NCBI GenBank assembly: GCA_034429935.1
Contig: DAOUFJ010000030.1
Span: forward strand, 47,261 to 111,260
Reading direction: 5' to 3'
Length of the DNA stretch: 64,000 nt
DNA from: Dehalococcoidales bacterium
GTDB lineage: Bacteria > Chloroflexota > Dehalococcoidia > Dehalococcoidales > UBA5627
Part shown: positions 37,820-44,222 of the stretch, one piece after another
Numbering within the stretch: the first letter of the stretch is position 1
How the letters are laid out: every line of letters begins with the position of its first letter
Position numbers and translations under genes: made by a program
Notes under the pieces: model-generated
The model's input: only the letters and a program-made list of their open reading frames with translations
Databases searched by the model: none
Told to the model about the DNA's origin: nothing

Positions 37820-38012
37820 TGGTAGCGGGGGTAGGATTTGAACCTACGACCTTCGGGTTATGAGCCGTTAAATTAGCTTCATCTGTGAACAGTCCCAATG
37901 TACACAGTTTATTCCTTAATTCAGTTCTTGGTGTTCTTTGTCCAGATAGAATCATGCTTAAATAGCTTTTACTTATTCCTAATTGCTTAGCTAATGCATT
38001 TTGACTCATCAT
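37419..38012 (-). CDS. chimeric ORF: XRE-type HTH (element B, candidate int N-part) + att-encoded linker + core-binding domain of the decayed integrase
   Basis: MMSQNALAKQLGISKSYLSMILSGQRTP.. (HTH, 38012-37867), AHNPKVVGSNPTPATK (the tRNA-derived repeat read in frame), then the integrase SAM-like domain. The start lies 2 nt after the stop of the xis-like gene. Confidence 0.7.
   Translation of the reverse strand: MMSQNALAKQLGISKSYLSMILSGQRTPRTELRNKLCTLGLFTDEANLTAHNPKVVGSNPTPATKNDSSLNNLPLRELLILLLDEGAQRKLRLRNLQNTELFELWDNELILRYRTPNTLHESRRFFGHFHQFLGEFPPTVELGKGFLTSFSNCKPATVYRYNALLKQFFDWLGYSWTVKIRMPKQLPEYVEDKDVRS
37820..37866 (-). repeat. att copy 3: 47-bp identity to the 3' part of tRNA-fMet
   Basis: tggtagcgggggtaggatttgaacctacgaccttcgggttatgagcc is identical to 51461-51507. 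Confidence 0.92.
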
Positions 38013-38014
38013 TT

Positions 38015-38200
38015 TTATTTGTTATACTCCTTTTTTGATTTACGTCCTCCTCCTAATTTTCTTTGTCTACAATAATTTAGTTCCAATACTACCCAGTCTC
38101 TAGCCAATTTAACTCCTTTAATTTCACCTTTGGCTAATAACCGCCTTACTTGACTGGTGTCTAATCCTAGCTTGATAGATGCTTCTTTTACACTATACAT
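38015..38200 (-). CDS. excisionase-family helix-turn-helix protein (Xis-like)
   Basis: MYSVKEASIKLGLDTSQVRRLLAKGEIKGVKLARDWVV is the excisionase/MerR-type HTH_17 pattern. 61 aa. Confidence 0.7.
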   Translation of the reverse strand: MYSVKEASIKLGLDTSQVRRLLAKGEIKGVKLARDWVVLELNYCRQRKLGGGRKSKKEYNK

Positions 38201-38206
38201 AGTTAT

Positions 38207-38230
38207 ATTATACCTGTATACAGGTATAAT
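38207..38230. promoter_or_regulatory. 24-bp perfect palindrome (ATTATACCTGTA|TACAGGTATAAT) in the divergent promoter region of element B
   Basis: It lies 7 nt upstream of the xis-like start and contains TATAAT (38225-38230) facing the 38307 gene. Confidence 0.5.
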
Positions 38231-38306
38231 TTCAAGGCAAAAATGAAGAAAAATTTATTGCCATGTATATTGTGTATCTGATGTATCAAATAGTATTATT
38301 ATCACT

Positions 38307-39011
38307 ATGGAAGAAAGCGAATATAAGAGAACAAAAGCTATATTAGATACGGCTAAGAAAAGAGACGTTCCTGACTTTGAGCATACATTAGATATGCGTA
38401 ATGAATGTATTAGATTATTAATGATAAATTTGGTTCAATATCGACCTTTCATTGAGAGGATGAATCAATTAAGACTGAAATATGAGAAATGTGATGAAAT
38501 AAAGGAAAGACCATTAGCTTCAATAGAATCTCTGAGTCAATCTTTCCAAACTATGAAAAAGCAGGCACAGGAATATCTTAAAGATATTTCATCAATTGTT
38601 AGTGATTATGGTCTTAATCCTGATTGGGCAAGAGAACTAATACATGAAGGTATTAATGATTTTGATTCATTAGCTACTGGATTAGATTGTAAAACCATAG
38701 ATGAAGAATTTAGTTTTAATATAACTTGGAATACAGAAAAATTGTCTAGTAAAAAAGAAGCCTTTGCACAAGTAAAAGAGCAATTTAACGAACAATGGGA
38801 TTTATATGAGCAATATTTAAAAAGTATTGGATTTAACAAAAGAAGAAAAAAGGGAGCATTAGGAAATCATGTTATATGGACTTTTAAGAAAGTATGTTTG
38901 CATATGGCATGGCATGAGTTAGCTCAAGACGAAGGTTTATTAAACGCAGAATCATTAAGGAAACCAGTTTATCAAATTATTAAATTATTAGGGCTTAATT
39001 CTACTAATTAA
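38307..39011 (+). CDS. hypothetical protein (element B)
   Basis: 234 aa, helical, no family recognised. Confidence 0.55.
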   Translation: MEESEYKRTKAILDTAKKRDVPDFEHTLDMRNECIRLLMINLVQYRPFIERMNQLRLKYEKCDEIKERPLASIESLSQSFQTMKKQAQEYLKDISSIVSDYGLNPDWARELIHEGINDFDSLATGLDCKTIDEEFSFNITWNTEKLSSKKEAFAQVKEQFNEQWDLYEQYLKSIGFNKRRKKGALGNHVIWTFKKVCLHMAWHELAQDEGLLNAESLRKPVYQIIKLLGLNSTN

Positions 39012-39144
39012 AGAGATAGATGCCTAAGAATAAAGTTAAACTTCAGCATCATATCTAATTAGAGAATATAATTATCTCCTATAGCGTCAAGGATTAAAAA
39101 TCATATCTATACATTCGGAGAAATATTAAGGCATATAAGTTAAT

Positions 39145-39267
39145 TTATTTGCGTTTTTTGGGCTCAGTAAACTTCGGCAATTCTACGCCATCGCCTGATC
39201 TATCAGGTTTGCCACTCTTAGTTATTCTAGGCGGATTACCTTGTTTTTGTGTCGGAGTTCCTTTCAT
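39145..39267 (-). CDS. small basic ORF (40 aa) with a strong SD, not in the ORF track
   Basis: Own translation: MKGTPTQKQGNPPRITKSGKPDRSGDGVELPKFTEPKKRK. AAGGAGGA lies 5 nt upstream of ATG 39267. Confidence 0.45.
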   Translation of the reverse strand: MKGTPTQKQGNPPRITKSGKPDRSGDGVELPKFTEPKKRK

Positions 39268-41984: not shown

Positions 41985-42238
41985 ATTCTAATATCCTTAT
42001 TTAACCTACCATTGATTACAATATAAATTCTAATACTGGGCTACTGCCACTATTAACTATTCTTTTTAATATTGGTTATCACCATAATTGTTGTATTTAG
42101 GACAGAGTATTTCCTCATTACCACAAGCTTTTGTCCGCTGACCTGAACCCAATGTAATAGGCTGTTAATCGACTTTTTTAATTTTACAGCATCAATGACT
42201 ATGACAGGGTTGCAGGTAACCAGACTGCGATAGCTTTC

Positions 42239-42883
42239 CTACTCTTCATAAATAGTTACCTTCAGATATGCATCACAATACTCTAATGTCATTGGCGACA
42301 CGCTTGTCAATATTCGCAAACTATACTCGCCACTCACGGGGGCGATGAAAGCGAATTTCCAAGGATAACTTTGTATGCTTATGTCTATCATATCGCCTTG
42401 ACGACGTAAGGATTGTTTAATGGTGTCTCCAAACGGGTCTTTTACATCAGAAATTACCGGCACTGGGTTAGTAAGTGCAAACTCTTGCCTAGCTCCACTA
42501 CTAAAGGAATAGCCTTGTAAACTTACCTCTCCTTCAACTCTGCTACCGGCTTCTACCTGAAAGCGGAAAGTGCCGCTATCTAGTGCCTCTTTAACCATAT
42601 CTGAGTTGTTTAGCCATAAATAATAGGGCACTGGTTTAATATCCTTTTCTAGCACTTTGGGAGGCGTGGGGGTTAGCTCTGATGTGGCATAGGAATACTC
42701 CACTACTGTTTCTGTATACATTTCTCTTGGAGTTGAACCTGTATCAGTTGCTGTCTTTTGAGTGTAAAAAGCATAACCGAGAACAGCTCCTAGACAAAGG
42801 CTAAGGATAATTATTACCGCTATCAACAATCTGTTAATCATTTTCGGACTTCTAAGAAAGTATAATAAGCCTATAATTTTCAT
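42239..42883 (-). CDS. membrane-anchored extracytoplasmic protein
   Basis: N-terminal TM (LLIAVIIILSLCLGAVLGYAF), with a beta-rich remainder. Confidence 0.5.
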   Translation of the reverse strand: MKIIGLLYFLRSPKMINRLLIAVIIILSLCLGAVLGYAFYTQKTATDTGSTPREMYTETVVEYSYATSELTPTPPKVLEKDIKPVPYYLWLNNSDMVKEALDSGTFRFQVEAGSRVEGEVSLQGYSFSSGARQEFALTNPVPVISDVKDPFGDTIKQSLRRQGDMIDISIQSYPWKFAFIAPVSGEYSLRILTSVSPMTLEYCDAYLKVTIYEE

Positions 42884-42964
42884 TTGTCAATCCTATATAG
42901 TGTCAATTATCATCTAAATGTGCCTAATTACTTTCCGCATTTTAACATTATATCTAAATAAGGA

Positions 42965-43171
42965 GTGTTGAGAGTGGGAAGAAAGAAACCACAGAAGCAA
43001 GAAGAAAAGATTGAGCGGATATTTCTTACTTTCACCGAGGCACAAGAATTTCTAGGAGTAAGCCACCAGACTATATATAAGCTAATGAAAGAGGGTTTAC
43101 CCTCTCACAAGATAGGTAGGAAGCGGGTTTTTTTGAAGGAAGACCTTACCAAGTGGATAAAAGAGCATTAG
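42965..43171 (+). CDS. excisionase/MerR-type helix-turn-helix protein
   Basis: LTFTEAQEFLGVSHQTIYKLMKEGLPSHKIGRKRVFLKEDLTKWI. Confidence 0.72.
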   Translation: MLRVGRKKPQKQEEKIERIFLTFTEAQEFLGVSHQTIYKLMKEGLPSHKIGRKRVFLKEDLTKWIKEH

Positions 43172-43299
43172 ATTTTAATTTTGAGTAAATTCCCAGAGTG
43201 GACTTAGAAAAACAAAATATTATCTCAAAATAAGTTGACCCGTACCAATATAACATGAATACAGTCGTATTTAGCTTTAGTTTGTGAACATGTTCAGCT

Positions 43300-44118
43300 T
43301 TAGACTATAGGACTATTACCCCTATTGTTGTGAACAGTTTTAAGAGCATCCTCAAATGTTAATGAAGCTGAATAACGTTCAACCATGCTTAAGGTAGTCC
43401 ATCCTCCAAGCGTTTGTACTACTCTTGTAGATAGTCCACTCTTTACATTATGGACTGCAAAGCCTCTTCTGAAACTGTGAGGATTACATTTAATACCAGT
43501 CTTAAATGCTAATCTTTTAAGCATAGTCTGTATACCGCTAGTATCTATGCCAAAGCTATCATTATTATTAAACCATGTTTTTACTATATCATTACCACAT
43601 AAGCACTTACGATAGCGATTACCTTTACCAAGTACAATGACCGTGCCTTCCATCCAATCAAAGTCCTTAGCTTTCACATTAGCAGCTTCAGAGACTCTCA
43701 TCCCACTATGCCAAAGTAGAGAGATAATAGCTCTATCCCTTCTAGGACAAGCATTTATTAATGTTTGATATTGGGCTTCGGTTATTGCTGGAAGTAACTT
43801 CTTTTGCCGTTTTGGTGCTTCTACAAGTGTGATAGGATTATTCTCTATATGTTCATTTTTAAATAACCAATTACTTAGTGCTCTTAAGCATTTGAAGTAA
43901 TTCCATTTTCCATTTGAACAGCTTAGATTATCAAGGAAATTCTTTATACCATCAGGGCTTAAAGGATATCCAATGAAGCGTTTTAATCTCCATTCATAAT
44001 CTGAAATTGTTCTTGCAGATAAACCATTCGCTCTACTTTTTAAAAAGGCAGACAGCATTTGGCTTGTGAACAGTTGTTGTTCTTTTGTGAACACTTTGAA
44101 GCTGGAATTTGTGAACAC
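43300..44118 (-). CDS. tyrosine recombinase (XerC/D-like) of element B; candidate C-part of an att-spanning integrase
   Basis: Core-binding domain (LSARTISDYEWRLKRF) and catalytic residues in GMRVSE, GKGNRYR, HSFRRGF, LGGW and ERY. The frame stays open upstream to att copy 2. Confidence 0.9.
   Translation of the reverse strand: MFTNSSFKVFTKEQQLFTSQMLSAFLKSRANGLSARTISDYEWRLKRFIGYPLSPDGIKNFLDNLSCSNGKWNYFKCLRALSNWLFKNEHIENNPITLVEAPKRQKKLLPAITEAQYQTLINACPRRDRAIISLLWHSGMRVSEAANVKAKDFDWMEGTVIVLGKGNRYRKCLCGNDIVKTWFNNNDSFGIDTSGIQTMLKRLAFKTGIKCNPHSFRRGFAVHNVKSGLSTRVVQTLGGWTTLSMVERYSASLTFEDALKTVHNNRGNSPIV
44065..44117 (+). promoter_or_regulatory. three direct TGTGAACA motifs (44065, 44086, 44110); further copies at 37884, 43283 and 43329. 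Candidate integrase-binding sites of element B
   Basis: All six copies are in the same orientation. They flank both sides of the att core and occur in different reading frames. Confidence 0.45.
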
Positions 44119-44177
44119 TTTATGTTCACTATTGGAATGCTCAGGGGATGTTTTTAATGGATTTTGAAGCTGAATTT

Positions 44178-44222
44178 TGGTAGCGGGGGTAGGATTTGAA
44201 CCTACGACCTTCGGGTTATGAG
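44178..44222 (-). repeat. att copy 2: 45-bp identity to the 3' part of tRNA-fMet
   Basis: tggtagcgggggtaggatttgaacctacgaccttcgggttatgag is identical to 51461-51505. Confidence 0.92.

Follow-up and report, generated by a model that had tools for sequence, protein, structure and literature searches.

Does element B, a 6.3-kb integrative plasmid-like element at a tRNA-Met gene of a Dehalococcoidales bacterium, carry one integrase gene that integration cuts in two, or two genes that happen to sit at its opposite ends? The question is raised by a stretch of 64,000 nucleotides (GenBank assembly GCA_034429935.1, contig DAOUFJ010000030.1, positions 47,261 to 111,260 of the forward strand; hereafter the window), in which the element has no separate complete integrase gene (int). 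At one end a minus-strand open reading frame (ORF) encodes a small helix-turn-helix (HTH) domain, at the other end lies a tyrosine recombinase frame, and the HTH ORF and the integrase form one frame across attP, the attachment site of the excised element. We consider, with a probability of roughly 0.8, that this is a single integrase gene which spans attP and is split by integration, and hold the functional consequences of such a split with less confidence than the split itself. Frame continuity, its conservation over many tRNA targets, the placement of starts and stops, and the arm repeats are all directly visible in the data presented here.

One reading frame across the attachment site

The minus-strand ORF that begins at 38012 (MMSQNALAKQLGISKSYLSMILSGQRTP...) crosses copy 3 of the attachment (att) repeat without a stop and forms a 197-aa ORF (37419-38012), so that the N-terminal part of the gene, int(N), extends in its integrated state through att into a neighboring remnant. 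From the opposite end of the element, the recombinase frame (43300-44118 as listed) is open upstream across att copy 2, to a stop just past the copy. Both frames translate the repeat as HNPKVVGSNPTPATK. That the two ORFs run through the 45-bp repeat in one and the same phase had been proposed in an initial annotation of this DNA, and the proposal is borne out, together with all of its arithmetic. Joining 38012..37820 to 44177..43300 in silico yields 1071 nt, i.e., 356 codons plus a stop, with the predicted length and the predicted order of HTH domain, att-encoded linker, core-binding domain, and catalytic domain.

In Pfam, the rebuilt ORF matches HTH_3 (aa 2-31, E 1.3e-8) and Phage_integrase (PF00589; aa 196-336, E 7e-23), with HTH_3/HTH_31/HTH_19 as the matches of the N-terminal domain. 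The catalytic residues R225, K249, H298, R301, W324, and Y333 are invariant in a 31-sequence alignment, and domain match and residues both place the protein in the tyrosine recombinase superfamily (PF00589). Approximately, codons 1-50 of the rebuilt gene encode the HTH domain, codons 51-65 correspond to the attP core (the 3' 45 nt of tRNA-Met), codons 66-98 contain three TGTTCACA arm-type repeats and encode a disordered tether, and codons 99-356 encode an Xer-like core-binding and catalytic body. The predicted attP junction of circular element B reads ...GGATTTTGAAGCTGAATTT + 45-bp core + CCGTTAAATTAGCTTCATCTGTGAACAG.... In element B alone such a fusion could be due to chance, because a tRNA gene is G+C-rich and stop-poor and only ~35 further codons must be open; the statistics across the family exclude chance.

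Open frames, in silico excision, and start signals in the family

A search with the rebuilt protein recovered 1078 integrase homologues (90% clusters, E ≤ 1e-5), and a profile of the HTH part recovered 996 (90% clusters), both sets almost entirely from Dehalococcoidia/Chloroflexota. The family is thus widespread, with about 1000 clusters per gene half and at least 15 tRNA/orientation classes. Scanning one genome per species gave 67 related loci, all of them from bacterial metagenome-assembled genomes (MAGs) titled as Dehalococcoidia, Dehalococcoidales, Chloroflexota, Chloroflexi, Chloroflexia, or SAR202, bar two: L006 (“bacterium”) and one bin labeled Saccharibacteria. The latter, L019 (CAZWDF010000155.1, binned as “Candidatus Saccharibacteria”), is a typical member of the tRNA-Glu antisense class, and its label is probably a binning error rather than a sign of a host outside Chloroflexota.

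Many of the called homologues start with peptides that are translated tRNA, derived from sense 3' halves (..VVGSNPTPAT.., ..VTGSSPVPPT.., ..VAGSSPVSRS..) or from the antisense strand (..GFEPVISSLRGRCPKPLDECAT..). At 37 loci, ARAGORN places a tRNA ≤300 nt upstream of the conserved integrase start, and the stretch from this tRNA to the conserved region is free of stops in the integrase frame in 35 cases, compared with 13 and 15 of the 37 in the two alternative frames. Among these loci, 15 tRNA/orientation combinations are represented.

Relatives with int(N) and the C-terminal part, int(C), at opposite att ends, which the initial annotation had recommended looking for, were found in the form of 18 elements that have the integrase, the downstream HTH ORF, and the direct repeat all on one contig. 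The direct repeats measure 22-58 bp (40-58 bp in all but one). In silico recombination within the repeat restores an intact ORF of 324-360 aa in 15 of the 18 elements, where chance alone would bring the phases into agreement in one third. The 15 rebuilt ORFs use about 10 different att cores, in differing frames relative to the T-arm, and these cores include sense 3' halves, antisense 5' halves, and one sense 5' half; in element L040, the intact tRNA is located at the HTH end. The three failures (L013, L014, and L018) show premature stops or frameshifts, as decayed copies would, and two of them are also the only two exceptions in the open-frame test, which suggests decay.

In many members the tRNA is antisense relative to the integrase, with the tRNA 5' half as the core (L007 9906-9984, L010 2244-2320, L011 1265-1343, and L017 9906-9982, with L020, L022, L028, L038, and L047 as further cases). 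The rebuilt tRNA therefore takes its 5' half and upstream region from the element and not from the host, and these members are unusual against the rule that the recombinant tRNA retains its original promoter (PMC8371274). The 49-bp core of L060 (403-451, 6366-6414) is recognized neither as a tRNA by ARAGORN nor as an Rfam family at the gathering score, yet the rebuilt ORF is intact (327 aa). L062 has two tandem HTH int(N) ORFs (6538-6753 and 8719-8946), each running into a tRNA-Arg-derived repeat, and a single int(C), and several long contigs (the match regions L061-L069) carry just the last 40-60 codons of a family integrase. Doublet and C-terminal-only fragments both look like what earlier insertions have left behind.

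Start and stop signals are divided between the two halves. From the end of the tRNA to the 12th codon of the conserved region, int(C) has no in-frame ATG, GTG, or TTG in 19 of 38 loci, and a Shine-Dalgarno-like motif precedes a candidate start in none of the 38. An internal start for int(C), which according to the initial annotation would speak against a split gene if it were consistent among homologues, was thus rejected as a feature of the family. In the window, no Shine-Dalgarno motif is found before GTG 44118, GTG 44094, or ATG 44058, and the annotated starts disagree with each other (NCBI P0002, 252 aa from ATG 44058; JGI P0241, 264 aa from a GTG). The ATG of the HTH ORF has a Shine-Dalgarno sequence 2-9 nt upstream in about 18 of 23 loci (AGGAGG/GGAGG-type or shorter cores in 14 loci and AGGGGG in 4); in element B the nearest AGGAG is 14 nt upstream of the ATG. 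An excisionase-like ORF often abuts or overlaps the HTH ORF in related loci. Judged by eye, the top 120 of the 996 HTH homologues are 48-102 aa long, and nearly all run into a tRNA-derived peptide, with a stop only at or past the end of this peptide. No stop is visible before att among these 120, and the initially considered possibility that the HTH ORFs of relatives terminate ahead of att is hence not what is observed. One half has a start without a stop and the other a stop without a start, a pattern that marks one gene divided into two pieces: attP falls within the integrase gene of this family, and upon integration the start and the HTH domain are parted from the body.

Contiguous HTH-integrase homologues, also among the initially recommended checks, do exist. 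Natural uninterrupted HTH-att-integrase ORFs occur in four lineages, namely, P0014 (L002; 324 aa, behind an overlapping excisionase-like ORF), the P0101 cluster (335 aa, from one linear 7-kb region present in three samples, L001, L072, and L073), P0358 (which ends at the contig end), and the more distant P0330 (L077; 355 aa, on a phage-like 7.8-kb contig). In addition, a related genome holds a B-like copy with 87-89% nucleotide identity (L074/L075), immediately next to tRNA-Met and the MgsA gene; gene identity between the two hosts is only 76-81%, and no element A separates the copy from tRNA-Met there. Since the B-like copy is more similar than the host genes and occupies the same tRNA with different neighbors, the comparison supports an independent mobility of element B.

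Arm-type repeats, proposed mechanism, and rival explanations

All six TGTGAACA occurrences in the window fall within element B, compared with 1.2 expected (positions in Table 1). Across the family, the integrase side contains two to three direct (A/G)NGTTCACA copies just ahead of the core-binding domain, translated as ..KFT.. or ..VFT.., and the HTH side of most loci contains either a TTCACA-n5-8-GTGAA pair or two direct TTCAC(A/T), with a single copy in element B and two others. Of 14 rebuilt attP sites, 12 have conserved TTCACA repeats in both arms, independent of the tRNA core. Members with divergent HTH domains have different repeats (GTTAAC in L039 and TTGTTAACTC in L055), and none was recognized in L040. 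The TGTTCACA repeats, which lie within coding sequence to either side of the core, resemble arm-type sites, and the HTH domain would be their probable reader. That the integrase is heterobivalent and uses its HTH to bind arm sites, putatively the TGTTCACA repeats, seems to us about as likely as not. Just upstream of the start codon of the HTH-integrase P0330, we also observe a GTGTTCACAGTATTCACT motif (L077 1256-1315), which hints at autoregulation via the same kind of site.

The predicted protein structure shows a matching layout. An AlphaFold2 model of P0014 (alignment A4; mean predicted local distance difference test [pLDDT] score, 87) contains a confident three-helix HTH at residues 1-40 (pLDDT about 90) and confident core-binding and catalytic domains, while residues 41-68 (pLDDT <50) are exactly the part encoded by the att core and the repeats. 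In the model, the protein is thus predicted to combine an N-terminal DNA-binding domain with a flexible tether, as a heterobivalent integrase does. Ratios of nonsynonymous to synonymous substitution rates (dN/dS) between element B and its L074 relative, which derive from small counts, are 0.25 for the HTH, 0.48 for the linker, 0.07 for the core-binding domain, and 0.13 for the catalytic domain.

A mechanism may be proposed on this basis. The excised circle would contain one 356-codon int directly behind the excisionase-like gene, and full-length Int would be made only from this circle, cotranscribed with that gene, and would perform integration. Strand exchange inside the core would then cut the gene in two: int(N) would retain its promoter, Shine-Dalgarno sequence, and ATG and gain a random tail from the sequence past attR, and int(C) would stay behind the tRNA copy without start signals. 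The HTH would be a functional analogue of the N-terminal domain of lambda Int, and the integrated copy alone would be unable to make a working integrase (“suicidal” integration), leaving the element locked in. Both the missing start signals of int(C) and the common decayed fragments bear indirectly on this putative inactivity of Int(C). For remobilization, full-length Int would have to be supplied by a copy that is episomal or newly arrived, or else by a tandem neighbor, whose int(C) would be joined in frame to the int(N) of element B. An episomal phase of element B is plausible, since it encodes a primase-helicase-type ATPase of the AAA_25 type, and the tandem array of tRNA, elements A and B, and remnant, as well as the C-terminal-only fragments, fits accumulation and decay in place. 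We further speculate that the free HTH, whose expression signals stay strong once the element is integrated, could sit on the arm sites and serve in repression or immunity.

Taken further, the data could describe an independently evolved bacterial family of self-splitting tyrosine integrases, with a tether translated from the attP core and arm sites, an untranslatable Int(C), and resurrection of arrays, a view that we hold tentatively and at somewhat less than even odds. If it is true, the attP core and arm sites would be translated into a tether that links an arm-binding HTH to an Xer-like body, and integration would leave a free HTH protein and a catalytic fragment beyond the reach of translation. 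With the excisionase-like gene ahead of it, int(N) would still be strongly expressed, and the free HTH could be an integration-dependent repressor or immunity factor; a later tandem insertion or a superinfecting copy would re-create a live gene and could resurrect the array. The view of such integrases as exclusively archaeal would be overturned.

Among the rival explanations, the one that survives best, improbable as we judge it, accepts that the frame is under selection but has Int(C), made from a noncanonical or read-through start, recombine both ways. The fusion protein would be a tolerated or regulatory by-product, integration would not be self-disabling, and the HTH would act mainly as a regulator, like the repressor/immunity factor of BPs and Brujita. 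In line with this, the closest solved structures are of “simple” recombinases without arm-binding domains, including Brujita Int, itself part of an integration-dependent immunity system; int(C) ORFs are mostly intact in MAGs; int(C) of the sense class lies directly downstream of, and co-oriented with, a transcribed tRNA; and the int(N) ORF retains strong translation signals when integrated. However, half of the loci offer no int(C) start codon at all, the many C-terminal-only fragments in long contigs suggest that integrated copies decay, and the presence of arm-type repeats to either side of the core implies that the enzyme is heterobivalent, whereas Int(C) has no domain to read such repeats.

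Very improbable, and largely refuted by the excision, open-frame, and start-signal comparisons, are two independent genes, i.e., a small XRE-type regulator without a stop before att and an Xer-like integrase starting from 44118, 44094, or 44058, with the in-phase open frames across the repeat a coincidence helped by the G+C-rich and stop-poor tRNA. Annotation pipelines do call int(C) from internal starts (P0002 and P0241), tRNA sequence is often open in more than one frame, and short HTH proteins are by far the commonest form in databases. Yet the start placements of NCBI and JGI differ, coincidence accounts poorly for 35/37 open frames against 13-15/37 in the control frames or for 15/18 in-phase, stop-free fusions over about 10 cores where phase alone gives one third, and neither a regular int(C) start (codon absent in 19/38 loci, Shine-Dalgarno sequence in 38/38) nor an HTH-ORF stop before att (top 120 of 996) is visible. 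Least probable of all is a metagenome assembly or binning artefact, or an immobile relic whose rebuilt gene is biologically meaningless: although the comparative data come nearly all from MAGs and metagenome contigs and no circular form was found in metagenome_contigs, the same arrangement, bounded by exact direct repeats of 40-58 bp, is found again in dozens of assemblies and sequencing projects that are independent of one another, element B and its counterpart occupy the same tRNA in two genomes with different neighbors and are more alike than the host genes, and the replication and recombination genes of element B are intact.

Several points weigh against a single integrase gene split at attP. 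Binding of the HTH to the repeats is putative, as is the activity of the protein in either form, whole or split. Constraint on the linker is weak (dN/dS 0.48 over 25 codons), so that its openness and not its sequence argues for translation, although a tether is expected to be kept open rather than conserved; likewise, the nearly invariant “FT” that opens the conserved region may mirror the DNA repeat and not the protein. With GTG 44118, GTG 44094, and ATG 44058, int(C) of the window has candidate starts, from which a certain amount of Int(C) could arise. Contiguous ORFs are rare in nature (four lineages) and are all on linear contigs, and they could be tandem-array junctions rather than attP, since a tandem junction yields the same structure, as ORF 37419-38012 does in the window. 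None of the contigs with contiguous genes (L001/L072/L073, L002, and L077) is circular or has a second att copy, so that attP and a tandem junction look alike there. The exact 70-nt attP junction of element B is absent from metagenome_contigs, where no circle was found, and a gapped DNA pattern for contiguous genes of the tRNA-Glu class, validated on L002, returned from the same collection only the contig of L002 itself; the excised state is therefore one that we infer. In a 50% representative library, a profile of the contiguous form found the HTH part only in P0330 and the truncated P0358 among the best 150 matches, and in a viral collection just two distant integrases matched.

Related systems and the surroundings of element B

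Integrases of the SSV type, also called “type I” or “suicidal,” have attP inside int with a tRNA segment as core, and their integration produces int(N) and int(C) (PMC7253208; PMC8371274). Those with an N-terminal split are exclusively archaeal according to one review (PMC8371274), and archaea-only self-disruption is a basis of evolutionary arguments in both (PMC8371274; PMC7253208). The element B family shares with SSV1-type integrases (SSV1, pTN3, and pT26-2; PF16795) an attP core inside the integrase ORF that divides it into int(N) and int(C) (seen in the window, in 15/18 elements, and in 35/37 loci), a core of about 45 bp that is a segment of a tRNA gene, and a short int(N) with a long int(C) that includes the catalytic domain. 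In both groups, integrated copies accumulate and decay at tRNA genes, where neighbors can form chimeric genes (PMC7253208; PMC8371274). The family differs in its hosts, which are bacterial (Dehalococcoidia/Chloroflexota) and not archaeal, in its Xer/Brujita-like PF00589 body, in a severed N-terminal part that is an XRE-type HTH with conserved arm-type repeats, and in an excisionase-like gene immediately upstream. Pfam at E ≤ 0.01 gives PF00589 as the only integrase domain, with no match to PF16795 (Phage_integr_3; Superfamily 25_02 of Badel et al.), and SSV1 Int is absent from the PDB sequence matches listed (E up to 0.01) and from the 50 best structure matches. Homology to SSV1-type integrases was accordingly rejected, with XerA, XerD, and Brujita Int the closest among the matches listed. 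An unrelated Xer-like enzyme that follows the same logic in bacteria points to convergence; the family appears to work like an SSV-type integrase but to have arisen independently.

In heterobivalent integrases, the arm-binding fold of the lambda/Tn916 type is a beta-sheet. With these enzymes the family shares a three-part protein (N-terminal DNA-binding domain, tether, and core-binding plus catalytic domains) and short repeated sites on both attP arms at conserved distances from the core. Here, however, the N-terminal domain is a three-helix HTH_3 without an Arm-DNA-bind match in Pfam, whereas the integrase of element A matches Arm-DNA-bind_4, and the core and the putatively HTH-bound arm sites lie inside the coding sequence of the tether. 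For the core-binding and catalytic domains, the strongest matches in sequence and structure come from the chromosome-dimer resolvases XerA, XerC, and XerD (4a8e, 1a0p, and 5hxy), but scores stay far below the NCBIfam equivalog cutoffs (XerA_Arch, 113 versus 220 bits; XerC, 103 versus 335 bits), and the genes of the element B family are element borne, tRNA targeting, and flanked by direct repeats and encode an extra HTH domain. With such scores, and with the gene in a low-GC element bounded by att repeats, we do not count it among the Xer resolvases.

Bacterial integrase genes that extend across attP are on record. Examples are myxophage Mx8 IntP (cited in PMC4383910) and the serine recombinase gene dsiB of the Dehalococcoides ssrA island (PMC3146451), both of which cross attP with their 3' end; the authors of the latter already wondered whether the gene is complete only on the circle (PMC3146451). 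Integration thus alters the gene in Mx8 IntP/IntX and DsiB as well, but only the C-terminal tail or stop changes, and start signals and all domains remain together. The element B family loses an entire N-terminal domain and the translation start, and DsiB is a serine recombinase. In mycobacteriophages with integration-dependent immunity, attP lies within a separate repressor gene (PMC4557955). BPs, Brujita, and Charlie resemble element B in that attP is inside the gene of an HTH DNA-binding protein and integration changes the protein made, and the solved structures nearest to the catalytic body include Brujita Int, but there the split repressor sits beside an intact int, whereas in element B the HTH is the N terminus of the integrase itself. 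The initial annotation knew of no gene partition of this kind in bacterial tRNA-integrating elements. This stands for the N-terminal split, which is archaea only according to PMC8371274, and does not stand for integrase genes across attP as such, given the 3'-end cases. A literature search of incomplete coverage returned no bacterial integrase described as losing its N-terminal domain and start codon upon integration.

The bacterial family contradicts the archaea-only rule for self-disrupting integrases and offers a bacterial setting for asking why a mobile element would disable its own integrase. It also matters for annotation: pipelines label int(N) as “XRE transcriptional regulator” and assign arbitrary starts to int(C), and the real gene is therefore missed and element boundaries are misplaced. 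The attP core is doubly constrained, as tRNA sequence and as an open frame, yet the family has switched targets many times, which may inform the evolution and engineering of integrase specificity. The finding also bears on genome change in Dehalococcoidia, a group whose mobile islands at tRNA and transfer-messenger RNA genes include traits of applied interest.

The 45-bp repeat TGGTAGCGGGGGTAGGATTTGAACCTACGACCTTCGGGTTATGAG is present in three exact copies in the window (exact repeat search), where shuffled sequences lead to an expectation of 0 matches. Because of these three copies and of the low G+C between them (34%, versus 44-49% in the host flanks), two elements are recognized in tandem behind tRNA-Met, plus a short remnant beyond att copy 3.

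Table 1. Features of the tRNA-Met locus and of elements A and B (window coordinates)
Feature	Coordinates	Strand	Remarks
int(N)	37865-38012	-	Codons 1-49 and first base of codon 50; ATG at 38012; minimal three-helix XRE-type HTH
int(C)	43300-44177	-	Codons 66-356 and stop, first 2 nt complete codon 65; linker with arm repeats, core-binding domain (from ~44076), catalytic domain
Three direct TGTGAACA copies, integrase side	44065-72, 44086-93, 44110-17	-	TGTTCACA on coding strand, translated ..FT..
Inverted GTTCAC, integrase side	44124-29	-	Arm repeat region 44065-44129
TGTGAACA, HTH side of core	37884-37891	-	Within last int(N) codons (..GLFTDEA..)
Two extra TGTGAACA at int 3' end	43283-90 (after stop), 43329-36 (last codons)	-	Same orientation as arm repeats
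att copy 1	51461-51505	-	3' 45 nt of tRNA-Met; exact repeat search
att copy 2	44178-44222	-	attL of element B; boundary with element A; integrase frame reads HNPKVVGSNPTPATK
att copy 3	37820-37864	-	attR of element B; HTH ORF reads same phase
tRNA-Met(CAT), intact	51461-51535	-	ARAGORN; 3' half (anticodon loop to CCA) is att copy 1
Element B	37865-44177	-	6.3-kb integrative plasmid-like element between att copies 2 and 3
61-aa excisionase-like HTH ORF	38015-38200	-	Stop 2 nt before int(N) start; juxtaposition recurs in related loci
AAA_25/primase-helicase-type ATPase, element B	39410-40375	+	Likely replication protein of element B
68-aa excisionase-family HTH protein, element B	42965-43171	+	Passes TIGR01764 (39.7 bits; cutoff, 28.8)
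Remnant “C”	37245-37819	-	Open through att copy 3, same phase as int frames
Element A	44223-51460		Separate 7.2-kb element between att copies 1 and 2
Classical integrase, element A	50227-51378	+	Arm-DNA-bind_4, SAM_3, Phage_integrase (Pfam)
448-aa protein, element A	47069-48415		Weakly Rep_trans-like
828-aa SMC/AAA_23-type ATPase, element A	44608-47094		

For two of the neighboring features, the initial annotation stands in part. The 61-aa ORF does end 2 nt before the start of the HTH ORF, but its Xis-like label falls under the curated cutoffs (HTH_17, 24.5 versus 27 bits; TIGR01764, 22 versus 28.8 bits). Remnant “C,” previously read as a decayed integrase, is indeed open in the same phase, but its resemblance to integrases stays at the level of motifs (ARDVLLVDVAKDTGLRRSE; hhalign against the family profile, E = 0.06), with no Pfam match at E ≤ 5 and no tblastn match with family members; we regard it as a probable, though weakly supported, fragment of a decayed tyrosine recombinase. 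The 68-aa protein of element B also matches an antiphage MADS1 HTH model (E 1.8e-10, far under the model cutoff), which probably reflects merely the common HTH fold.

Element A is unrelated to element B although it uses the same 45-bp core, and it also encodes an HTH_17 protein. The 57 bp located 3' of tRNA-Met (window 51405-51460, nominally the edge of element A) are 96% identical to L074 16380-16435, a stretch located past attR of the B-like element; identity between the host genes themselves is just 76-81%. Either the attP of element A copies the native tRNA flank, or L074 retains an A-like stub. The att cores of element B and L074 (10077-10121 and 16335-16379) differ at two positions, which form a compensatory T-stem pair (GTAGG..CCTAC versus GTTGG..CCAAC). 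Both changes are synonymous in the integrase frame, and the att copies are identical to one another within each genome (window and L074).

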